From: a virus
Taxonomy: Duplodnaviria > Caudoviricetes
DNA length: 64,000 nucleotides
Reading direction: 5' to 3' (one strand)
IMG/VR virus record: IMGVR_UViG_3300014205_000175
Span: 32,001-96,000 of that record
In this document: positions 18,336 through 37,358 of the stretch, piece by piece
How the letters are laid out: every line of letters begins with the position of its first letter
How positions within the stretch are numbered: position 1 is the stretch's first letter
Program-made: the position numbers and the translations under genes
The notes under the pieces: model-generated
The model's database searches: none
Told to the model about the DNA's origin: nothing
Seen by the model: only the letters and a program-made list of their open reading frames with translations

Positions 18336-21300
18336 TTAAATCACTTTACGATTGAGGCTGATCGGTAATTTATCCATCTGCGATGTTTTCAGTCGTGATG
18401 CCGGTGCCTGTGATGCTGGGGCAGTTTCACTAGGCATGGCTGATTTTAGCGCGGTAACGATCTCAGCGAATTTCTCGGCACTGATGTTACCCGAAATAGT
18501 CGTTAGCACTTGCAGCATCTGTTCTTGCAGGCTTACTGATTTACCCATTAGAGTTTCCACTCCGCTGAGTTGCTTGAGCATATCGGTGGCATTATAACGA
18601 CTACCGTTATCGATAGGAGTAACATTACTAGCAGTACGTGGTGCAGTAGGTACATTAAATGACGGTTGAGCGGCGGTTACCGCTGCCGGCTGACTACTAT
18701 TAGCCATCGCTGTACCGATAGCTGCTAGCGGACTACTAGCGCCAGTGGTACTGGTATCTTTGACTGGATTCGCTACCGCGACAGCATCAGAAGAAGCTGA
18801 TATAGGAGGTAGTCCGCTATCATTAGCCGCAGGAGCACCGATGTTAAACTCATTAGCTTTACTGGTAACCTTACCATCCAGATGAGCTAGTAGTTCTTCG
18901 ATTGTGCGCGGCTGATTATTGTTATAGAAAATTGGTGTATTGCTACGTGCTGCTTTGGGTAGCAACTCAGCAGCGATAGTGTCTGGACTGGCCGAGAGAA
19001 GCTTTTTCGCTCCCGATGGTCCTAGCATATGCGCTGCGTATAGTTCGACTGCCGATGCGTTAGGAGCTACATCGGATATTAAACGGGCATTAGCTTTCAT
19101 ATATTCAGCTGCCATCAGAGCATTAGCAACTGGATCGTTTTTCGACGTATTAGGTCCTAAGCCATATTGCCGACCGTGTTTACCGAGCATGTATTGCCAG
19201 GTCTTATCGACAAACTGAAATAGTCCGCCTGCAGAGCTTTGACTGCTGCGTGCAGTAGCTTTGAAGCCTGATTCGATTGCAGCGAACGTTTGCAGTGTAG
19301 TAGGATCGACTCCGGCGATCTGAGCGACTTGCTGCACCATGCGTTTGATCGCATCGGGGGATTTATAATTACCCGTAGATAGATCACGAATCGCATCCAT
19401 CGTACCGGGCTGAGCACCGAAACCAGCTTTACCGGCGACATCATTGATACCGTATTGGCCACGAATGTTAGCACTGGAGCTCACTGTAGCTTCACCTATG
19501 CTCACGATCCTGTCATCAACACCCATCGTGCGAGCAGTATTACCAGCCGTGCGTGCTGCGCCACGTGACGAGTTCAACCCACCATTACCGATGTCACGCG
19601 CCATACCTGCTGCGGCAGCACCGATGCTGGAAGTAGGCGTACTCATAGCAGGCTTAGCATCATTGGCTGCTGAAGGATACTTACCACCGGCAGCTAACGC
19701 TGGAGATGAGGCAGGTTTACCAAATGCATCAGGATCAAAGCCTTTGGTAGTGTAACTAACCTGCTCGGTTTTAGCTGGCGGTGCAACCTTACCTTTGCTG
19801 CCTTCCGGTGTCACCCCTTCGCTACTCAGAGCTATTTGAGTACTTGAAGGCGTGGGTTTCGAAGTGCTGCCGCTAGCGAGTATTTGCTGGGCAACTGCAT
19901 CATTACGTCGATATTTAACCGCACCGGGTTGTGCGCCATATCCTCCACCACCTCGATGCGCTGAAGCGAGTACTAGCTCACTGGCTAGTTGCGGGTTTTG
20001 ACGAACTGCGGTGAGTTTACCTTGAATGCCAGCTGGTTCGACATGCCAAGGTTCACCACCCACAGGTCGAGTAAAGCCGTATTTTTTCATTAATCCGAGC
20101 TGATCGAGTGCTGCAGCATCGGTGCTATTGATATCTACCGCGAGACCCGATTCATGTAGCGATCGTCCCGGCGGGGCAGCTTTACTAGGATTGGCGGCAT
20201 GCAGTGCAGCTTGTTTCTCATACGAGCGATAACCAGAGTTGACTTGAATCTTTTTCCCTGACATTTCGCCGTACTCTTGTGCCATCGCTTTGAAGCGCTG
20301 TAGCATCGTCGGATTGATTCCCTGTAGCTCTACACCACTACCAAGTTTTATGTAATTACCACCGCTCTCTCCACTACAGAGCTCGGGTGAAATAACACTC
20401 GTATTCTTTTGGAAAGCTTCATTATTAAGAATAGCTGGCTGAGATGCTTGAGCCAGTGGAGTTTTACTTGTACCGAGGATCTTATCGGCTGAAGATTGTA
20501 CCGAGGGTTGTGCGCTACCAGCTACTAATGAATCAGGCTCTTTAGAGGGAGCTACAGATGTTATTTCACCCACAGGCTTCGATGCAGCAGTAGCGATCGT
20601 AGTGGGTCGTTTCTGATATCTGGCTGGAGGCAAAGTCGCACGGGCGCGCGTTACGGCATCCAGATAATCGGCACGGCTGGCAGAGAGCAAATCTACTCCG
20701 GCAAACGGGCTTTCTTTGGTTTGATAAATATCATCAGGGACATCCAGAAGTGAGACGTACTTCTCGAAATTCTCGCTTTTGAGATTCGAGATCGACATTA
20801 GCGTCAAACGCGGATTGGTTGCCCACAAGGCATTACGGTTTTTTACATATGTCGGTATAAAGCGCTTGGACAACCATACAGCTAGTGTCTGGGCTTTAGC
20901 TAGACCAGTAGGAGTCTCGGGATCGACATCAAAGATCTCATAGACCACCTGCATTTCTATACGGTTATCCGAGACCGTAAAACCGTCGTTTTTAAAGACT
21001 TCGACTTTTTTCTGTATATAGTCTTCTAGTTTGAAGATCTGTTGATAGCGATCGTTCTCATCGCCATAGGACGGCAACCCATACTGGGCTAGGCGAATAT
21101 AGTCCAAGCGGCTAACATTTCGATCTTTGAAATACCGATATAATGCATAGACCGGATTAGCTTTGAGAGCTGTGATACCCATGCTTTTAAATAGATCTGC
21201 TGCCCGTCCGAGTACCGAAGAAGCTACGGCAGACTGGATCGTGCTAGGTAGGCCTGATTTTTCCACGGATGGCTTACCTCCTTCATCATTCTTAGAGGTA

Positions 21301-24300
21301 GGGTCAGACTTACTTACAGCAGCCGCAGCACCAGAGATTATTGCGGCTTTATTCATATCAGCTAGCGTCTTGGGTTCTTTAGCGGCTTTATCGAGCTTAT
21401 CGAGACCGAGGTCTTTCTTCGCCGCGACGATAGCAGCTTCGACATCTGACTTACCGGCTAAGAACTGCAGATAATCTTTGATCGGGCTATTGGTGACATT
21501 GTAATACGGAATGTCAACTTTGATCGCATCGATATAAATCTTGGCTTCAGCGAGTTTGAGTTTATCGATATCAGCGATAGCTAGTTTCGAGTTGGCTTTG
21601 AAAAGCGCCGTGCGATGCAGGTTGTATACATGGACGAAGCGTCCCAGAAACCATTCTTGTAGCGCTGCGATATGCTCTTCATCAGCTTCCGGGTCTAGAC
21701 CGAAGATCTCCAAGATCACATTGCCGTCGATCTTGCTCTGGTCGATCATCGCTTGTCCTTGCCGAATGACAGTAGCGTTGTCGCTGACATACTGTTCGAG
21801 CTTCAGTAGGTAATGGTAATACTCGCTATCAGCGGGCGGGATACCGTACTGTGCGAGACGAATAGCGGTGAGTTTAGAGGCACTGTTGCGAGTGAAAAAC
21901 TGGTAGCCTTTATATAACCCATAACCGACAGCACCGACGGCAGCAGCGCCAGCTATGAACGGCACCAGAGGGGAAGCAAGCATACCAGCACCCATTGCAC
22001 CGAATTGACCGATGCCAACAGCACCCAATCCAAGCCTGCCGACAGTAGTTACTGCCGACGCAGCGCTGGCGATACCACGACCAGCGAATAAAGCCCCTTT
22101 GCCGGCCATTTGCAGGCCTTTGACGGGGTTTAATGCGTAGTTAGCTACTGTGCCTACCCCACGGGCTACAGCGCCGACACCACGCCTTAAAATACCTGGC
22201 CTTCTAGCAGCCCCTCGACCTAACCCACGGCGTCCGCGTCGTCGACCCACTGCATCTCCCGCGCCACCTAGCATATCACCAATACTACCGCTAAGTGTAT
22301 CCATAACGCCACCGAACATATCTTTCATCGAGGCGATCTTATCTATCATCATATCGATAACATTACCACCACGATATCGTGCTTCTGATTTATTTTTGGC
22401 GTGCTCCTCAGCGCTTTTATGACGACGCTCCTCGGAAGCATTTTTCATTTTATCCAGCTTCTCTAACCAGCTGCCATCACGCCTGCCACTACCATCGACA
22501 TCATTAAAGTGCGTCAATCCACCGACACGATCTTTGACTGCCTTAGTAACGGTGTCATAACTAGTGCGAGCTTTATTGACAAGCTGATCTTTTTGCTCTT
22601 TGATACGTTCAGTCACCGATGGTGTGTCTGTCTCATCTTTGACCTTCGGAGGTTTAAGTTTGGACCATAGACCACTAATGCCAGAAACCATGGTATCGAT
22701 AACATTGTCACCGCGATACCATGGTTCGGGTTTGTCTTTGGCATGCTCCTCAGCGCTTTTACGACGGCGTTCTGCGGCAGCATTTTTCATCTTATCGAGC
22801 TTCTCTAACCAGCTGCCATCACGCCGGCCACTACCATCGACATCGTTAAAGTGCGTCAGGTCACGAATACGATCTTTGACGGTCGTGGCAGCAGTGTCGA
22901 AACGGGTACGGATTGTCGGCACTGGTTGGTCTGGTGTATCTGTGGTGACTGGAGTTTTCAGTTTGGACCGTAGGCCAGTAACACCCGAAGCTATAGTGCC
23001 GATAACATTATCGGCATGATGTTTATTAGCTGTGGTCAAGTCTTTTACGCGATCTCGTAATACGGTGCCGGTTTGTTTGACTCGGCCAAATAGTTTATCT
23101 GCACTGGCTGCAGTAGTAGATTTATTGATACCTTTCTCATCTTTAAAGCTACGTAGTCGCATCTTACCAGGACGACCAAGGAGATTTTTGATTGAGATAT
23201 CGCGTATGTCTAAGAGTACGTTATAGATATAACGATTATAGCCGCCCACACTACTGATGCCGTCACTGACTTTACTAGCAGCAGCTTGACCGAAAGCTTG
23301 GGTTTTACCCATCACCATACTGCCGAACTTGGCTACACGAGCGTAAGCGCTTTGGGCGCGTTCTTTGATAAAACGCATCGCCTTAGTCCTGATAGCTTCG
23401 ATCTCTACTCCTTGACTATTGATCAAACCGCGAGTGATATCTTCAGTAGTGAGTACAATATGTCCGTCAGTAGTAGCAACAGCACCCGTGATGAGTCCTG
23501 GGCGAGTGATCGCTTTACCACTGACCGTATCGATGTAACCGCCTAGACGCATGAGTTGAGCAGTCAGACGTGGTTCATTTTCCCCACGTACGTAAATATC
23601 GGTGGGTTCATCGAATAATTCAGCTACTGTCGTGCCGGCTTTCTTAACATTAGTCCACATGTCCTGCAAAGCTTGCGGGATCTTATTACGCACCACATCG
23701 GACGTGGTAGTGTAAATATCGCCAGCTAGATTCCACGCACCACTGATGAGTTTACCCAGACCGTCAGTAACTCTACCTTTGTTCTTTTTAATCTGCTCGC
23801 TGGCTAGATCGAACGTAGGTTTAGCGATACGGTCTTTAGTGAAGGTATAAGCACTCGTTGTGTTGTCTTGCAGTTTATTAAAAGCACCGATGCCACGTTT
23901 TTTGATGCCTGACAATAGTCGCGTAGCACGATCGCCAATACCGAGAGTAGCACTGGTAGGCACCTCTTGCAGAATCGCTGGAGAAGGCTGACTATCGGCA
24001 TTATTCCAACCGTCTTTGATATCTGACCATCCGCGTTTGAAACGACCGCCAGCCAGACGTGCAAATACTCCTAGACTTTGAAGTTTATCGCCAGCTTTAA
24101 AAGTAATACCGTTAAATAACTTACCATCCATACCGGCGATATGACTATCGATAGAAGCTGTATGGGTGCGGATCTCGCCTAGCACATCGAGCATCGCATC
24201 ACCGGTTTTGTTCGTAGCGATGCGAGTGTCGACTTTGGTGTTAAGATCTTGCACTGCCTGCATCGTCAAACCATTCATCGTTACCAGATCGATGCTCGTG

Positions 24301-26645
24301 CCACCTGGAGCAGCACCGTTACCGAAGCGCGACTGCACCTCCTGCGCCATCGGTCCTACATGTGCACCGCCATCACCACGACCTGCCTTATACTGCCACT
24401 GATAGTTTTTAACCGCAGCTAGCCTATCCAGTACGTTAGGTGCCGGACTAATGTTTTGCTTGGCGTGAATATCGGAGGTTGCATGATAAGGTTTGATATC
24501 GCGCTTGGCATGAATGTCTGATGTAACTGTACCAGGATCGGGCGGTTCGGGGTTTTTCCCGCGTGCATCTAAGAGCCTCTCGACATAGCTCGTCTTATCG
24601 AGTTCAGTGACGTTGTTTTTGGTTTTGGTGATTCCCATGTCACCCAACAAATCACCCATGCCAGCGTCGGTATATTGCTGTGCGATGCCTTGTTGAGCAG
24701 GGATGGTATTTTGAATATCACGACCGAACTTATCGACAGCGGATTTATACGTGGTGTCTCCATCACCGTCCATCATTTCACTAGCCCTACTCGCAATATC
24801 TTCAAGACGACTAGAGACACGTGAGCGATGGGCTTGATCGATATAGCGTAGGAACTTTTGATTAGTTAGAGTTTTGAATGTTAACGTATTCCCGTCCATC
24901 ATCCACCGCAGCAGGGCTTTTTTAAGCGCTGCGATCTGAGGTTCGGTAAGTATGCGATCGAGTTTAAACGTTTTAACAAAGCGTGCAAGCTCATCGTGGA
25001 GTTTGCCGTTACTCTCAGGATTGATGAGTTTTTTAGTGATGCTTTCTTTGATCGCAGATTCGGTATTAAATCTCCCTGACTCAAAATCAAAGCGTTGCAC
25101 TTCAACGCCATCGACTGCAGCCAATCCACTAGCGAAAGCAGGATCGTGTTCAACCCACATCCGTAGTAGTTTGGTCGAGCGAGTATTTTCCTGGAGGATT
25201 TTACCTAGGTAGCCAGGGATAATATCGGTGATGCTGCGATAGACGCGGTTATCAAAAATCGCATCGGGTTGCGTGAGATTACTCATGCCACCAGCGCCGA
25301 CTAGTTTCATATCGACATCTTGCTTGGCAAATGGTTCCAACAAGCTTCGAATAAAACTCTTGGCCGAATTACCATCGGCATCATTGAAGTAGTCGCTGTG
25401 ATAAGCGTCTTGCGCGAGACCTTGCGGGTTCATCGCAGCACCGACCCACTTCTTACCGAACTTATCAAGACGGCCGTTTTCTGGTGCGATGGTACGACGT
25501 AGCCGTGCACCGAGTTTAGCGGCAGCTTTGTTGACCGGGTTCTGCAGCAGCAGTGAAGCACCGATATTGCCAGCGGTGTTAGCGCCGGACATATCTCCCA
25601 TGTCCAAACCGTCACCGAGATCTTGCTGCTGCATCGAGAGTTGATCGATCGCATCGAGCGACATGTCCAAGCCCATCTGGATCGAGCTCGACATCTCTCG
25701 AATCTGATCGACCATGCGTTTTTTGATCTTCTCAAACCCCTTACCGATAACACTCTCGCTATTAAAGAGCTTACCTTGGATATTATTAAAAAGCTTATTA
25801 CGCGCGATATCTTTAAAGCGCTCAGTGTTCTGAATCTTCGTAAACTCAGGCAGTCCTGTATTTTTTACGACTGCGTCGTTTTGCGTCTTGAATATCTCGA
25901 AATATTCTTTGGATTTGGTCAGTAGCTCAGCATTAACAAAGTAGCTGCGGTACTGAAGCTCCAGGGATTTTTTCTGGTAGGCCTGTGTAACCTGCGTCTC
26001 ATAGTTACTGAGCGCCGCGAGGTTATGATCGATGCTGGTTAGTAAACCTTGTTGAGAAGTAAATCTTTTGGCTTCTACCTGTCGATCCAAATCTCCTTTG
26101 GTATCGTCACGAGCTTGTTGACGTGCCTGTAGGTCGATTTGGGTATTGAACACTTCAGCGAGTGAGCCGGCGATCGTCTGTTCTTCTTGTTGTTGCTTAG
26201 AAGGTCCTGACGGTGCATCGTAAATACCAAGAGCATCTTTGATTTTACTCGCGAGACGGCGACTACGCGAATTCTCGTCCGAGCTCATCTTCTCTAGCAC
26301 TTTGGTAAAGCGCTTGGCGGTCGGTTTGATTTCGCGTGCTGCCTCCCGATAGAGACTGGAGATATGCCCGGATACTTCCTCTACGCGCGAGCCGATGACT
26401 TGGTACTCTTTCGGCAAAGCTTCTTGCGCGAAAGTACGCAGCGTATTTTCCGACAACACGGTGCTTTTCGCACCACTGATCGCGCCCTTGAATGCACTGG
26501 TGACGGCACTGCGTTTTTTCGGATTGACATCACTACGAGCGCGAATGTCATTGACCCGTACGTCAGAGTCGAGTGTATCGAAATTTAGATCTTCATCAAA
26601 ATCGAAATCTAGGTCAAATGCCTCGTCTTGCTTCTTTTTAGCCAT
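18336..26645 (-). CDS. Tape-measure / tail-associated lysin (phiKZ gp181-like) with internal S74 chaperone, M15 peptidase and lytic transglycosylase domains
   Basis: 2769 aa, divergent from the vRNAP beta' gene. SLT motifs AAIESGF and AGGLFQF; M15 motifs SGYRS, SLHESGLAVDI and EPWH; S74 motifs SDIHAKQNI and GPMAQEV; Gly/Ala-rich hydrophobic segment. Confidence 0.9.
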   Translation of the reverse strand: MAKKKQDEAFDLDFDFDEDLNFDTLDSDVRVNDIRARSDVNPKKRSAVTSAFKGAISGAKSTVLSENTLRTFAQEALPKEYQVIGSRVEEVSGHISSLYREAAREIKPTAKRFTKVLEKMSSDENSRSRRLASKIKDALGIYDAPSGPSKQQQEEQTIAGSLAEVFNTQIDLQARQQARDDTKGDLDRQVEAKRFTSQQGLLTSIDHNLAALSNYETQVTQAYQKKSLELQYRSYFVNAELLTKSKEYFEIFKTQNDAVVKNTGLPEFTKIQNTERFKDIARNKLFNNIQGKLFNSESVIGKGFEKIKKRMVDQIREMSSSIQMGLDMSLDAIDQLSMQQQDLGDGLDMGDMSGANTAGNIGASLLLQNPVNKAAAKLGARLRRTIAPENGRLDKFGKKWVGAAMNPQGLAQDAYHSDYFNDADGNSAKSFIRSLLEPFAKQDVDMKLVGAGGMSNLTQPDAIFDNRVYRSITDIIPGYLGKILQENTRSTKLLRMWVEHDPAFASGLAAVDGVEVQRFDFESGRFNTESAIKESITKKLINPESNGKLHDELARFVKTFKLDRILTEPQIAALKKALLRWMMDGNTLTFKTLTNQKFLRYIDQAHRSRVSSRLEDIASRASEMMDGDGDTTYKSAVDKFGRDIQNTIPAQQGIAQQYTDAGMGDLLGDMGITKTKNNVTELDKTSYVERLLDARGKNPEPPDPGTVTSDIHAKRDIKPYHATSDIHAKQNISPAPNVLDRLAAVKNYQWQYKAGRGDGGAHVGPMAQEVQSRFGNGAAPGGTSIDLVTMNGLTMQAVQDLNTKVDTRIATNKTGDAMLDVLGEIRTHTASIDSHIAGMDGKLFNGITFKAGDKLQSLGVFARLAGGRFKRGWSDIKDGWNNADSQPSPAILQEVPTSATLGIGDRATRLLSGIKKRGIGAFNKLQDNTTSAYTFTKDRIAKPTFDLASEQIKKNKGRVTDGLGKLISGAWNLAGDIYTTTSDVVRNKIPQALQDMWTNVKKAGTTVAELFDEPTDIYVRGENEPRLTAQLMRLGGYIDTVSGKAITRPGLITGAVATTDGHIVLTTEDITRGLINSQGVEIEAIRTKAMRFIKERAQSAYARVAKFGSMVMGKTQAFGQAAASKVSDGISSVGGYNRYIYNVLLDIRDISIKNLLGRPGKMRLRSFKDEKGINKSTTAASADKLFGRVKQTGTVLRDRVKDLTTANKHHADNVIGTIASGVTGLRSKLKTPVTTDTPDQPVPTIRTRFDTAATTVKDRIRDLTHFNDVDGSGRRDGSWLEKLDKMKNAAAERRRKSAEEHAKDKPEPWYRGDNVIDTMVSGISGLWSKLKPPKVKDETDTPSVTERIKEQKDQLVNKARTSYDTVTKAVKDRVGGLTHFNDVDGSGRRDGSWLEKLDKMKNASEERRHKSAEEHAKNKSEARYRGGNVIDMMIDKIASMKDMFGGVMDTLSGSIGDMLGGAGDAVGRRRGRRGLGRGAARRPGILRRGVGAVARGVGTVANYALNPVKGLQMAGKGALFAGRGIASAASAVTTVGRLGLGAVGIGQFGAMGAGMLASPLVPFIAGAAAVGAVGYGLYKGYQFFTRNSASKLTAIRLAQYGIPPADSEYYHYLLKLEQYVSDNATVIRQGQAMIDQSKIDGNVILEIFGLDPEADEEHIAALQEWFLGRFVHVYNLHRTALFKANSKLAIADIDKLKLAEAKIYIDAIKVDIPYYNVTNSPIKDYLQFLAGKSDVEAAIVAAKKDLGLDKLDKAAKEPKTLADMNKAAIISGAAAAVSKSDPTSKNDEGGKPSVEKSGLPSTIQSAVASSVLGRAADLFKSMGITALKANPVYALYRYFKDRNVSRLDYIRLAQYGLPSYGDENDRYQQIFKLEDYIQKKVEVFKNDGFTVSDNRIEMQVVYEIFDVDPETPTGLAKAQTLAVWLSKRFIPTYVKNRNALWATNPRLTLMSISNLKSENFEKYVSLLDVPDDIYQTKESPFAGVDLLSASRADYLDAVTRARATLPPARYQKRPTTIATAASKPVGEITSVAPSKEPDSLVAGSAQPSVQSSADKILGTSKTPLAQASQPAILNNEAFQKNTSVISPELCSGESGGNYIKLGSGVELQGINPTMLQRFKAMAQEYGEMSGKKIQVNSGYRSYEKQAALHAANPSKAAPPGRSLHESGLAVDINSTDAAALDQLGLMKKYGFTRPVGGEPWHVEPAGIQGKLTAVRQNPQLASELVLASAHRGGGGYGAQPGAVKYRRNDAVAQQILASGSTSKPTPSSTQIALSSEGVTPEGSKGKVAPPAKTEQVSYTTKGFDPDAFGKPASSPALAAGGKYPSAANDAKPAMSTPTSSIGAAAAGMARDIGNGGLNSSRGAARTAGNTARTMGVDDRIVSIGEATVSSSANIRGQYGINDVAGKAGFGAQPGTMDAIRDLSTGNYKSPDAIKRMVQQVAQIAGVDPTTLQTFAAIESGFKATARSSQSSAGGLFQFVDKTWQYMLGKHGRQYGLGPNTSKNDPVANALMAAEYMKANARLISDVAPNASAVELYAAHMLGPSGAKKLLSASPDTIAAELLPKAARSNTPIFYNNNQPRTIEELLAHLDGKVTSKANEFNIGAPAANDSGLPPISASSDAVAVANPVKDTSTTGASSPLAAIGTAMANSSQPAAVTAAQPSFNVPTAPRTASNVTPIDNGSRYNATDMLKQLSGVETLMGKSVSLQEQMLQVLTTISGNISAEKFAEIVTALKSAMPSETAPASQAPASRLKTSQMDKLPISLNRKVI
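22345..22870 (-). repeat. Intragenic direct repeat in tape-measure gene (two copies, 360-bp period)
   Basis: LTHFNDVDGSGRRDGSWLEKLDKMKNA..ERR.KSAEEHAK.K.E..YRG.NVID.M occurs twice with near-identical DNA. Confidence 0.9.
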
Positions 26646-31700: not shown

Positions 31701-33014
31701 CATAACAATGACATGGGAACGATCTCTGAATCCACTGTCGATAGCGGTGATGTGTCGATTAACACCTATATGTCAGGCAATCCGCAGCTCACCAACCTGC
31801 GTGGTGTGACGCGCGACTTTGATATGCAGCGAGACGGATCTACATCGTTACTGTCGAGCTCAGCACTACTAGCACCCGGTGCAGTGAACGATGATCCGAA
31901 ACGGGTAAACTTCATCGGCGTGCAAAATGCTCACACAGTAGCTTGTGCGGGGTATCGTCAACCGTATTTAAAAACCGGTTATGAATACGTCGTACCGTAT
32001 CGCGTCGGTAAACTCTACGCCTATATGGCTGAGCAAGATGGCCGTGTGGCTGAACTCAGTGACAAAGTCATTATCGTTGAGTACGCCGATGGTAGTAAGA
32101 CAGGTGTGAAACTAGGTCGTCAGTATGGTCGTGCAGAAGGTTCCATTTATCCGCACGACATCACCACGACATTGGTAGTAGGGAAGAAATTTATCAAGGG
32201 CGATACGATCGCTTACAATACCCAGTTCTTCGAACCCGATATGCTCGACCCGAACCGCATCGTGCTCAAATCACACATGGTAGCACGTGTGGCACTGATG
32301 GAGTCGACACAAACCCTTGAAGATGCAAGTAGTATCTCGCGTCATCTATCGGATATGTTGCAAACACGTGTCGTCAAAGAAAAGACTTTCACGGTGAGTT
32401 TCAAACAAAATATCCGTAACATCACACCTACTGGTACTGAGCTTACACCGAAAGATATCTTACTGATCCTCGAAGATGAGATCACTAGTGGTATCGATAT
32501 TTTTGATAGCGATACGATCGAGTCTCTATCGCGGCTATCGAATCTCGCACCGAAGGCTAAGGTCAAAGGTGTGCTTGATCGCTATGAGGTATATTACAAC
32601 GGGGACTTGGAAGACATGAGTCCGACACTACGTAAGTTCACTCAACAGTGTAATCGTGAGATGACTGCGAGAAGTGCTGGAACCGATTACCCCATCACCA
32701 ATGGTCGTGTTACAGAAGAGTTTCGGGTTGAAGGCAAAGCCCTACAGCTCGATACTGCTGTTATCAAAGTCTACATCGTTGTTAGTGACAAAGCCAGTCT
32801 TGGTGACAAATGCGTGTTTGCTAACCAGATGAAATCTGTTATCTCCGAAGTACTCTACTATGACGTTAAGACTGAAACGGGTAGCGAAATAGAAGCGATT
32901 TTCTCCTACAAAAGTCTTAACAACCGTATCGTCAATAGCCCGCAGATGATCGGCACCACGATCACGCTTCTCAAGAAGATCGCAGAAAATGCCGTAGCGA
33001 TGTACGATAAGTAA
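28758..33014 (+). CDS. Virion RNA polymerase beta subunit (phiKZ gp178-like)
   Basis: About 1418 aa. GTISESTVDSGDV, NDDPKRVNF, EDASSIS and LGDKCVFANQMKSVI RpoB-like motifs. Confidence 0.93.
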   Translation: MLLEYSVYYKKFGIRRLGQLFNPPINTLDQLHLSRESTYHYVSHDVDVVMPDANSSLFSGYGKKVWVSHVSTLTSTEGAPKPLNKLVKALFRDWHLKNNKLFKYVEDPTAIVPDALTLVVYNYGLLHATYRYLKTPMADYYRWFNIEKTRWDNIATVVDKTQRQQFVIVDTPKVLPSVGMLKMFSGKVSIRTTKIFDNSERRMVLELWKWIDPATRGESTLSSLSKEQALYTNVIFRYENSFTILNLGKLEEWRAGNEGNTENAGQPMLPVFMLQKFVLKLMMGLQANAPAAVDEEDRDEELSEPDTHSEMTQALMPNVTANATQTEPEYADSFVSHLNNLDDDLAVLEKLDQAMYSDEETVATDSDTEEEDELSEVALQANSDDAARITASIYQPADAMQQNRNTVAQLAEDGVITAAAYKDLLKQIAAAEQVKNPYDSTQLLSDYTPIAAEELALSDEGHIAPHAAIADKSMAKTTLTKFDANYVGSVIKKDILAGVQHLSNAGVLIKDYQIEKEISALGKYEIHSVKLRPLDGVESTVYFRVPEIDQDGELYIASNKARMRKQRSDLPIRKISHDSVALSSYYGKVFVNRTERRQYDEVTWLADIIREIGMAGGNETIRKVTPGNVFNNHLKVPRIYSGLSMHFKYIDTANYHLVFDHQERLKLLDIEQLAKIEINGWVLCGHTRKKEPILVNPSGLFSIYRDNSYVAIGNVYQLLMLDASKAPIQYSELKIFSKAVPLAVVLGYYFGLSDIIKLVQGNPKVLSAKARYTPSSDEWVMRFSDYKLVFNKTNTAATLLLSGMLFYKDTLRQFKYSDFDARHVYMNVLDQRGINVRYLKELDTLKQLFVDPITRGVLEEMHEPTAFTGLLVRANELLMSDWHPDSNDLRYMRIKGYERVAGMVYKELVNSVRDYRSRNIRGKSQISMAPYAVWRAITQDQTVKMSEDINPINDLKEIEAVTYVGADGRAKDAMTKTAREYHNNDMGTISESTVDSGDVSINTYMSGNPQLTNLRGVTRDFDMQRDGSTSLLSSSALLAPGAVNDDPKRVNFIGVQNAHTVACAGYRQPYLKTGYEYVVPYRVGKLYAYMAEQDGRVAELSDKVIIVEYADGSKTGVKLGRQYGRAEGSIYPHDITTTLVVGKKFIKGDTIAYNTQFFEPDMLDPNRIVLKSHMVARVALMESTQTLEDASSISRHLSDMLQTRVVKEKTFTVSFKQNIRNITPTGTELTPKDILLILEDEITSGIDIFDSDTIESLSRLSNLAPKAKVKGVLDRYEVYYNGDLEDMSPTLRKFTQQCNREMTARSAGTDYPITNGRVTEEFRVEGKALQLDTAVIKVYIVVSDKASLGDKCVFANQMKSVISEVLYYDVKTETGSEIEAIFSYKSLNNRIVNSPQMIGTTITLLKKIAENAVAMYDK

Positions 33015-34918: not shown

Positions 34919-35485
34919 ATGAACGAGAAACTGCAGGAACTCGCTGATGAATGCCGCCGCAACTTCATGTTCTCAAAGAAAATCGAAGGTGGATACATCG
35001 GACCGAAGGGTGAGTTCATTCCTGTTCCTGCCGGCATTAGGCGCGTCGGCTTCAACTATGCCAATGGCAATGGTGGGTGGAGAATTGATCTAAAGTCAGG
35101 AAATAAAGCAAAAACCCGATTAGAAGTACGAGACTCACCTTTCCATCATGACTACATGGCCTCGTTGCAAGAAGCCCTCCGGCAACTTCATATACTCAAA
35201 CCAGAAGGGTTGTTGAAATCACAAACACGACATGCAGTAAAAGAACACGCTCACAAAAAAATAAAACTAGGAGTCGTCGGCGTTAGGTTCAATACCGCAT
35301 TTTCTCGCGGACATTGCTACCATTCTTTCATCGTAATGTGGGGGAAGAAGCGGAAAACAATACCTATCCCCCGCGACTACACCCAAGCTCAGTTTGATGC
35401 AGGTTTGGAAAAAGCCAAAACCATACGTCAGGAGTTTGAGCGCATCAAGTTGGAGAAGAGTCGCTTTACCACTGACAGTAAATAA
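34919..35485 (+). CDS. 188-aa paralog 1, putative double AP2-like DNA-binding protein
   Basis: Basic. VPAGIRR..GGWRI..RDS..ASLQEA and LGVVGVRF..F..G..AQFDAGLEKAK.IR, i.e. two beta3-alpha modules. Confidence 0.55.
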   Translation: MNEKLQELADECRRNFMFSKKIEGGYIGPKGEFIPVPAGIRRVGFNYANGNGGWRIDLKSGNKAKTRLEVRDSPFHHDYMASLQEALRQLHILKPEGLLKSQTRHAVKEHAHKKIKLGVVGVRFNTAFSRGHCYHSFIVMWGKKRKTIPIPRDYTQAQFDAGLEKAKTIRQEFERIKLEKSRFTTDSK

Positions 35486-35547
35486 TCTTCCGCCATATAC
35501 TAGGGCTAACACTACCGTCAGCCCACTAAATCTAAGGAGCTTCCAAT

Positions 35548-36114
35548 ATGGACAAGGAACTGAAAAAGCTTGCCGCTGAATGCCGTCACAAGTTCATGTT
35601 CTCAAAGAAAATCAAAGGTGGTTACATCGGGCCGAAAGGCGAGTTTATTCCTGTCCCGACAGGCGTCAGACGCAATGGCCGTGACTACGCCAACGCCAAC
35701 GGCGGATGGAGAATCAGCATAAGATCGAAACATAAAACAGAAATCCAGATAGATGTGCGGGATTATTGTTTCCATCACGATTACAAGGCTTCGTTACAAG
35801 AAGCCATTCGACAACTGAGTACTTTCAGACCGGAAGGGTTGCTAAAATCGCTAAAGCTACACACAGAAAAAGAACGCAGTCATAAAAAAATAAAACTAGG
35901 AATCTCTGGTGTTAGGTTCGAAACCTTGGACTGTAAGGGTCGACGTTATTATTATTTCACAGTAACGTGTGGGAAAACACAACGAAGAGTACCTGTCCCT
36001 CGTAACTACACCCAGGCTGAGTTTGATGCAGGTCTGGAAAAAGCCAAAACCATGCGTCAAGAGTTCGAACGTAACAAGATGGAGAAGAACCGTTTTACCG
36101 CTGACCTTAAATAA
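35548..36114 (+). CDS. 188-aa paralog 2, putative double AP2-like protein
   Basis: Clear paralog of 34919..35485. Confidence 0.55.
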   Translation: MDKELKKLAAECRHKFMFSKKIKGGYIGPKGEFIPVPTGVRRNGRDYANANGGWRISIRSKHKTEIQIDVRDYCFHHDYKASLQEAIRQLSTFRPEGLLKSLKLHTEKERSHKKIKLGISGVRFETLDCKGRRYYYFTVTCGKTQRRVPVPRNYTQAEFDAGLEKAKTMRQEFERNKMEKNRFTADLK

Positions 36115-36177
36115 TCGCTCGTTGTACATTCGGGTTAGCACTATCGCTAACCCGTTAATTTCTAAGGAACTACCACT

Positions 36178-36744
36178 ATGGACGAGAAACTGAAAAAACT
36201 GGCCGACGAATGCCGGTTAAATCGCATGTTTTCAAAGAAGACTGACGGGGGCTATTTTGGCCCGCGTGGAGAATTTATCCGTGTTCCTACCGGCATTGCG
36301 AGAATTGGTCGCAACTACGCTGAGAAATCCGGCGGGTGGAAAATTCACATCTTGAAAGCAGGCCAGCCTAAAATTATTATTCCGGTCAGGGATTCTCAAT
36401 TCAGTGGTGACTACATGGCTTCGCTACGTAAAGCCATTAAACAGTTGTCCGAACTCAAGCCCGACGGGGTGTTGCTTTCTAAAAAAGGTGTCAAGAAAAC
36501 CGAGGCTTCTAATAAACAGGTAAAGCTAGGAATGGCTGGCATCAGATTCAATCGTATCACTCGTAACGGAAAATCCTATTACTCATTTTCAGCGCTATGC
36601 GGGGATAAAAAGAAAACAGTCTGCATTCCTCCAGATTACACACCTGCGCAATTCGATGAAGGTTTAGCGAAAGTCAAAACTCTTCGAAGCGAATTTGAGC
36701 ATCAGCACACCCAAAACCGTCTTTTTACTGGCGGTAGTGTGTAA
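36178..36744 (+). CDS. 188-aa paralog 3, putative double AP2-like protein
   Basis: Clear paralog (GP.GEFI.VPTGI, YT.AQFD). Confidence 0.55.
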   Translation: MDEKLKKLADECRLNRMFSKKTDGGYFGPRGEFIRVPTGIARIGRNYAEKSGGWKIHILKAGQPKIIIPVRDSQFSGDYMASLRKAIKQLSELKPDGVLLSKKGVKKTEASNKQVKLGMAGIRFNRITRNGKSYYSFSALCGDKKKTVCIPPDYTPAQFDEGLAKVKTLRSEFEHQHTQNRLFTGGSV

Positions 36745-36791
36745 CATATTTGAGCTAGTAATATCGTCAGTCCCCTATAGGAGCTTCTACC

Positions 36792-37358
36792 GTGAAACAA
36801 GACTTACAGAAGATCGCCGACGAGTGTCGCGAGAAACGCTGCTTCTCCAAGAAAATCGGGAAAGGATGTTTTGGTCCTAAAGGTGAATTTATTCCACTAC
36901 CTACGGGTATTAGTCGCAAAGGAAAAAATTTCATTTACTCAGGTAGCTGGATAGTCAGAACACATACAAGAAACTTGCCTCCGATCATATTCACATTCCT
37001 AGACTCTGATGTTCATTGTGATTACATGGTATCTTTGAGCAGAGCCATCGAGAAACTAAAAGAACTCAAGAATAATAAAGTGTTCGTGACAGGCAACCAC
37101 CTTAATCAACACGAAAGTAAAAGCAAGAAACTGAAATTTGATATCGTAGGAGTTAGTTTTCACCTCCATAAAAGACGAATGTGTAGACTGCCGGTTCCTA
37201 CTTTTACCGCGTCGTGCGGTTACAAACGGAAAAAATTCACACTGCCTTGTATCTACACCCAGGCACAGTTCGATTCCAAACTGAAAGAAGCTATAGCCTG
37301 GCGTAAGGAGATGGAAAAACAGCGGTTGCAGGAAGTCGGGTTCGATAAGTTCAAATAA
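36792..37358 (+). CDS. 188-aa paralog 4, putative double AP2-like protein
   Basis: Most diverged copy; GPKGEFIPLPTGI and YTQAQFD retained. Confidence 0.55.
   Translation: MKQDLQKIADECREKRCFSKKIGKGCFGPKGEFIPLPTGISRKGKNFIYSGSWIVRTHTRNLPPIIFTFLDSDVHCDYMVSLSRAIEKLKELKNNKVFVTGNHLNQHESKSKKLKFDIVGVSFHLHKRRMCRLPVPTFTASCGYKRKKFTLPCIYTQAQFDSKLKEAIAWRKEMEKQRLQEVGFDKFK

Follow-up and report, generated by a model that had tools for sequence, protein, structure and literature searches.

The gp181-type gene and its internal S74/ICA domain

The window analyzed here, 64,000 nucleotides long (positions 32,001 to 96,000 of IMG/VR virus record IMGVR_UViG_3300014205_000175), contains an ORF that encodes a protein of 2769 aa and is the longest gene on its contig of 202,826 bp (Table 1). 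Its neighbors are gp180- and gp182-type genes, which is the phiKZ arrangement, and two RNA polymerase subunit genes together with the gp182-type gene bracket it, again like phiKZ gp181. The protein combines N-domain homology, a C-terminal lysin and gp180/gp182 synteny, the hallmarks of the phiKZ gp181 family, and on this homology and gene order the ORF is the phiKZ gp181 orthologue. The giant tail protein of phiKZ-like phages is essential. Gp181 of phiKZ is described as a tape measure only with the qualifier 'likely' (PMC12676376), and gp239 of SPN3US has been named a tape measure (PMC10052503).

Table 1. Features of the gp181-type gene in window coordinates, and loci of the two-gene lineage.
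Feature	Position	Strand	Remarks
gp181-type tape-measure/lysin gene, 2769 aa	18336..26645	-	PHROG 3201 E=1e-214; synteny
All-helical conserved N-terminal domain, aa 1-~694; ~79-81 kDa if released as predicted	24564..26645	-	
Pro-rich linker NPEPPDPG, aa 698-705	24531..24554	-	
Upstream motif copy T708-I717	24495..24524	-	S709 codon 24519-24521, K714 codon 24504-24506; candidate second cut between T708 and S709
Domain-proximal motif copy T723-I732	24450..24479	-	S724 codon 24474-24476, K729 codon 24459-24461; predicted default cut between T723 and S724
S74/ICA domain, aa 724-811	24213..24476	-	Pocket aromatics W750/Y752; GPMAQ; helix at C-terminal end
Helix pair, aa 787-842, predicted to form a three-stranded coiled coil that runs into remaining protein	24120..24287	-	
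DIYVxG-type conserved segment, aa 977-1089	23379..23717	-	No Pfam match
VanY/M15-type peptidase domain, aa 2111-2179	20109..20315	-	PF02557 E=9.6e-8
SLT lytic transglycosylase domain, aa 2436-2524	19074..19340	-	PF01464 E=1.8e-7
Two-gene gp181 lineage loci	L003 8529-17917; L052 8001-15413; L053 8001-14848		

The AlphaFold model of the N-terminal domain (mean pLDDT 73.5) consists of long helices and lacks a beta-helix. The domain gave no match in the PDB and nothing informative in the Atlas or by features, and its top matches in BFVD were only gp181-type proteins. The Pro-rich linker that follows it is not conserved among relatives. The protein is longer than its relatives partly because of an internal duplication of 114 codons (22347-22568 and 22689-22910, 82% DNA identity over 222 nt), and a second duplicated pair inside the gene lies 303 nt apart. 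The DIYVxG-type segment is present once here, compared with three copies in the gp181 orthologues of phiKZ, PS119XW and 201phi2-1. Midway along the protein, a single segment of weak hydrophobicity (aa 1552-1570, 21936-21992 (-)) may be a membrane-spanning helix, and a similar segment lies near aa 1360-1440 in the 3 homologues checked. Elsewhere in the window (34919-37358 (+)), there are four tandem paralogues of 188 aa that are basic and 39-63% identical to the first copy, which itself has no Pfam match.

The initial annotation placed an S74 domain with a doubled cleavage motif inside this gp181-type protein, and both the domain and its internal location in a gp181 orthologue were borne out by the follow-up. 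All motifs that it quoted lie where it put them, namely NPEPPDPG, the two copies of SDIHAK, NYQWQYK (aa 747-753), HVGPMAQEVQ (762-771), IDLVTMNGL (785-793) and NTKVD (802-806). Pfam Peptidase_S74 (PF13884) matches aa 724-772 with an E-value of 1.5e-10 and 41.6 bits against a curated cut-off of 22, and the first position of this match is exactly S724. A single-sequence phmmer search against the PDB returned no matches, but a profile built from 32 homologous domains matched 8jov, 3gud from GA-1, 7dc3 from MyRF and 6f45. S724 and K729 align with S1/K6 of 3gud_A and with S587/K592 of MyRF (mutated catalytic position), the pocket aromatics W750/Y752 correspond to MyRF Y615/Y617, and the GxxAQ signature reads GPMAQ. 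In the AlphaFold model of the domain (mean pLDDT 80), the four top VIA matches were solved ICA domains (4uw8, 7dc3, 3gw6 and 3gud), with Z-scores of 6.5-7.1, all below 8, against 4.0 for the next match, and rmsd values of 1.7-3.4 over 73-81 residues. The top ten Foldseek rows were likewise all ICA domains, none of them at E<=0.001, the best being MyRF at 7.7e-3. By sequence, dyad and fold, the domain thus belongs to Peptidase_S74, and its cleavage is a prediction. The genome encodes no second S74 domain of its kind. The domain falls outside the fiber and tailspike CIMCDs in the narrow sense: about 1960 aa follow it, and the part upstream is all-helical.

The initial annotation also suggested that the tape measure may trimerize. 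A three-copy model of the domain reached a trimer score of 0.79, compared with 0.00 for the best control; among solved homo-pairs, 20 of 30 reached the mark used for this score, compared with 1 of 23 single chains. Model runs agreed in at least 76% of contacts, with pLDDT values of at least 70. The suggestion is plausible; because similar complexes have already been solved, the model shows likeness to known ICA trimers rather than binding. The modeled interface includes S724/K729 and the coiled coil, while S709/K714 are unplaced. Trimerization of ICA domains is driven by their C-terminal coiled coil (PMC8326128), gp181 has been listed among putative trimers (PMC5380687), and an internal ICA domain predicts a trimeric tape.

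Distribution of the domain and duplication of its motif

The insert proved to be clade-wide rather than a one-off, with 140 gp181-type proteins carrying the domain. These proteins were collected by searching 50%-identity representatives with a profile, supplemented with close homologues and re-checked with a core-only HMM. An SDxxxK motif upstream of the core is retained in all 140, a count that may be biased toward intact copies since the collecting profile included the motif. The aromatic-x-Y pocket pair is kept in 139 and GxxAQ in 136 of them, and at least 1209 residues lie downstream of the domain in the 132 full-length carriers. A search with just the N-domain as query yielded 120 gp181 homologues, 35 of which have the S74 domain, located at aa 657-827 and always directly after the ~690-aa N-domain. 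It is hardly credible that the domain lacks a function and was either inserted recently as a passenger or created by misassembly. Its distribution is patchy and it was found in no cultured gp181, but the 140 proteins, which come from many samples and are mostly less than 50% identical, have it at one and the same site and with an invariant dyad, and synteny is maintained in the relatives' contigs that were fetched.

According to the initial annotation, such an architecture is not known from phiKZ gp181, and in agreement with this, phiKZ gp181 contains neither an SDxxxK motif nor an S74 domain. In the gp181 proteins of phiKZ, PS119XW and 201phi2-1, both flanks of the domain are present and S74 is absent, and no carrier among cultured gp181 proteins came up when two S74 sequences were used as tblastn queries. 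In an unrooted tree of N-domains, all 35 carriers fall in one subclade of 59 rows (SH-aLRT 93), with phiKZ outside, a topology that does not bear out a loss of the domain from cultured phages. Carrier state changes 8 times on this tree, compared with 30.6 changes after shuffling, and carriers are mixed with non-carriers. In close non-carriers (P0005/7, P0019, P0010/11/28, P0014/26), a low-complexity linker replaces the core while the flanking helices remain. Read from the tree and these remnants, several losses of the S74 domain have occurred in the clade, and such losses among close relatives indicate that it is optional rather than essential. The closest S74 domains outside gp181 are C-terminal and occur in podovirus virion proteins of 360-425 aa (PHROG 8003), which are a possible source of the gp181 domain. 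In the literature searched, coverage of which is incomplete, no description of S74 in a tape measure or gp181 was found; Iyer 2021 (PMC7824862) puts S74 in the fibers and spikes of group 2 jumbo phages. The internal S74 domain of gp181 is real and, apparently, an undescribed variant of a known module.

The two SDIHAK copies, at S709 and S724, lie 15 aa apart. They agree at 8 of 11 residues, and the codons for 5 of these 8 carry synonymous differences; SDxxxK otherwise occurs in these proteins at about 0.2 per 450 aa. This combination of shared residues, synonymous changes and low background shows that the doubling is not due to chance, and it is an old duplication maintained at the protein level. 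Among the 140 proteins, 110 have one motif, 28 have two and 2 have three, although a few of the 30 multi-motif proteins may owe their extra copy to chance. Extra copies within 60 aa numbered 28, against a mean of 4.1 and a maximum of 11 in 1000 shuffles. When upstream copies were defined without the lysine, Lys was nevertheless present in 27 of 29 (background 10%), and when they were defined without the serine, Ser was present in 27 of 45 (background 7%). The duplication claimed in the initial annotation is therefore real and also appears to be under selection. Spacing between the copies varies from 10 to more than 50 aa, and proteins with one and with two motifs are interspersed on the tree (8 changes versus 9.6 shuffled), which together suggest repeated duplication and loss.

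The use of the upstream copy can be read in two ways. In 20 proteins, the sole motif is displaced 31-94 aa upstream of the core, as opposed to the usual ~15, which makes an upstream copy plausibly usable. If these displaced motifs work, the pocket would accept a motif with a looped-out spacer, as S709 would need. On the other reading, cleavage would take place between T723 and S724 only, and the upstream copy would be a docking peptide that tethers the N-domain or a competitor for the pocket that slows the cut. The modeled interface with its single dyad S724/K729, the 110 single-motif proteins, the scattered states and the decayed upstream copies found in, for example, P0016 and P0022 are all in keeping with a single site. 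Against it, both catalytic residues of the upstream copies far exceed background, and in the 20 displaced-motif proteins the displaced copy is the only dyad available. We regard this single-site reading as doubtful, although it overlaps with our preferred explanation in that cleavage occurs in both.

Predicted self-cleavage and alternative roles

The initial annotation located the cut between the serine and the aspartate of the motif. This position needs correction, since ICA domains cleave the bond that leads into the serine, and the predicted bonds are those between T723 and S724 and between T708 and S709. MyRF is cleaved between P586 and S587 (PMC8326128), the mature Bd3182 fiber of Bdellovibrio ends at A781 with S782 as the catalytic serine (PMC10769870), and chain 3gud_A starts at the serine. 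The bond between T723 and S724 is, on the best reading, the default predicted site, and cleavage at a T-S bond would yield pieces of ~79-81 and 218-220 kDa. The protease site would mark, to the residue, the border between the helical N-domain and the lysin-bearing part.

The explanation that we favor, and consider probable as a whole, is that an internal ICA autoprotease frees the N-domain and caps the lysin part, with S724 as the default site and S709 as a second one. The C-terminal coiled coil of the domain (aa 787-842) would join three chains, the SDxxxK segment would thread the hydrophobic pocket (W750/Y752) of the neighboring chain, and the Ser-Lys dyad would cleave the bond preceding the serine, by analogy with MyRF (PMC8326128). 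The ~80-kDa helical N-domain would thereby be released, and the S74 trimer would stay on the ~218-kDa lysin-bearing part and form its new N-terminal cap. The S709 copy would be an old, selected second site, probably using the same pocket with a looped-out spacer or else serving to trim the N-piece. Because relatives have lost the domain, the cut would be an optional maturation step, the purpose of which may be either to shed a domain needed only for assembly or to obtain two virion proteins from one gene. Taken by itself, self-cleavage of the gp181-type protein at its ICA domain is likely; use of both S709 and S724 is conceivable but carries less than an even chance.

A central consideration is whether the domain cuts at all. 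It could instead be an internal trimerization or registration module (foldon) in which cutting is absent or negligible, a role with which the coil-driven trimerization of ICA domains, the listing of gp181 as a putative trimer and the lack of a known substitute protease in relatives without the domain would all agree. MyRF with the S587A substitution still crystallized as a trimer (PMC8326128). A serine that ICA trimers can dispense with, yet that is invariant here together with the lysine in 140 of 140 proteins, suggests selection for cutting rather than folding, and repeated duplication has hit the cutting motif and not the coil. We therefore judge a purely structural role quite improbable.

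The other alternative concerns the product. The domain may act as a fiber-like chaperone for the upstream N-domain, which would then be the key product, as a virion or ejected protein in its own right, the polyprotein being split into two mature proteins. In many proteins, the motif follows the N-domain at a constant distance, 37-38 aa away from a glycine that serves as a conserved landmark, the nearest relatives outside gp181 are the virion proteins of podoviruses in which a Gly/Ala/Gln-rich body precedes a C-terminal S74, and a lineage with two separate genes exists. However, the N-domain is helical and lacks triple-beta structure, and in phiKZ and most relatives it folds although S74 is absent. 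A chaperone role of this kind, which is not exclusive of the favored autoprotease explanation, seems unlikely. Cleavage of MyRF is independent of its upstream beta-helix (PMC8326128), and such independence makes ICA autoproteolysis compatible with an all-helical N-domain.

A bolder form of the autoprotease explanation, which we put forward tentatively and hold to be rather unlikely, is that the tape measure is a self-processing polyprotein throughout a large uncultured clade of phiKZ-like jumbo viruses, in which repeatedly evolved tandem dyads give two working sites for one pocket, used in sequence or as alternatives. If true, gp181 would hold the first multi-site ICA domain, and a two-module gp181 would be suggested for all phiKZ-like phages. 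In any case, the naturally occurring variants with two or three motifs or with a long spacer provide material for studying the choice of cut site by the ICA pocket. New here are the corrected bond, the statistics of the duplicated motif and its selection, the displaced-motif class and the repeated losses.

Split gp181 genes and relation to known systems

In AgentSmith and about 30 relatives, the gp181 orthologue is encoded by two adjacent genes, one of ~1030 aa and one of 1229-2081 aa that corresponds to the lysin half; the junction comprises a stop, a new start and a ribosome-binding site between them. This lineage indicates that the N-half and the lysin half can exist as separate chains; no mapping of its break (~aa 1030) to the S74 site was obtained. 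A split at codon 691 of gp181 in PA1C (MK599315), near the S74-equivalent site, was rejected as evidence because it is probably a sequencing error: relative to PS119XW, the record shows seven other short deletions within 50 kb. Most of these fall in short base runs, and one splits another structural gene. Several 1-nt deletions in the PA1C record relative to PS119XW, probably sequencing errors, split or shorten genes including gp181 (L055 301-7070; L057). Gp276 of 201phi2-1 was reportedly found as two fragments by proteomics, an observation that lies outside the evidence used here.

The gp181 domain shares its profile, fold and SDxxxK dyad with the CIMCD/ICA domains of K1F endosialidase (3GW6), the GA-1 neck appendage (3GUD), the T5 L-shaped fiber (4UW8) and the Bdellovibrio MAT fibers, and also the pocket aromatics, GxxAQ, the C-terminal helix and the trimer, which is modeled in the case of gp181. 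Fiber domains are C-terminal, follow a triple-beta helix and are a discarded piece, whereas the gp181 domain is internal, with more than 1200 residues after it (1960 in the 2769-aa protein), follows a helical domain and would stay on the larger product. The doubled motif is another difference from the fibers. The ICA domain of MYRF and Dictyostelium MrfA (7DC3), the best Foldseek match, is closer in its internal position and coiled-coil trimer (predicted for gp181), and it releases an N-terminal fragment without upstream activation (PMC8326128), a likeness that is proposed for gp181. Those proteins are, however, membrane-tethered transcription factors of eukaryotes that have a beta-helical stalk and one motif, as opposed to a phage structural protein. 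The findings extend ICA domains from fibers to tape measures and provide a phage parallel to the internal ICA domain of MYRF.

Within the phiKZ gp181 family (PHROG 3201, including SPN3US gp239 and 201phi2-1 gp276), the 2769-aa protein shares the N-domain, the DIYVxG segment, the C-terminal lytic domain and the gene order gp178-gp180-gp181-gp182; compared with phiKZ gp181, it has an additional S74 domain and VanY-type peptidase. The PHROG 8003 proteins of PBC5/PEp14/Pavtok-like podoviruses have S74 domains 35-48% identical to that of gp181 and are likewise non-fiber proteins, but they are ~390 aa long, carry S74 at the C-terminus and almost always have one motif. These podovirus proteins look more like ejection proteins than fibers. 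Virion proteins of this kind with a C-terminal S74 are widespread among podoviruses, and in some of them S-S-x-x-x-K replaces S-D-x-x-x-K (L001 9179-10381; L006-L044).
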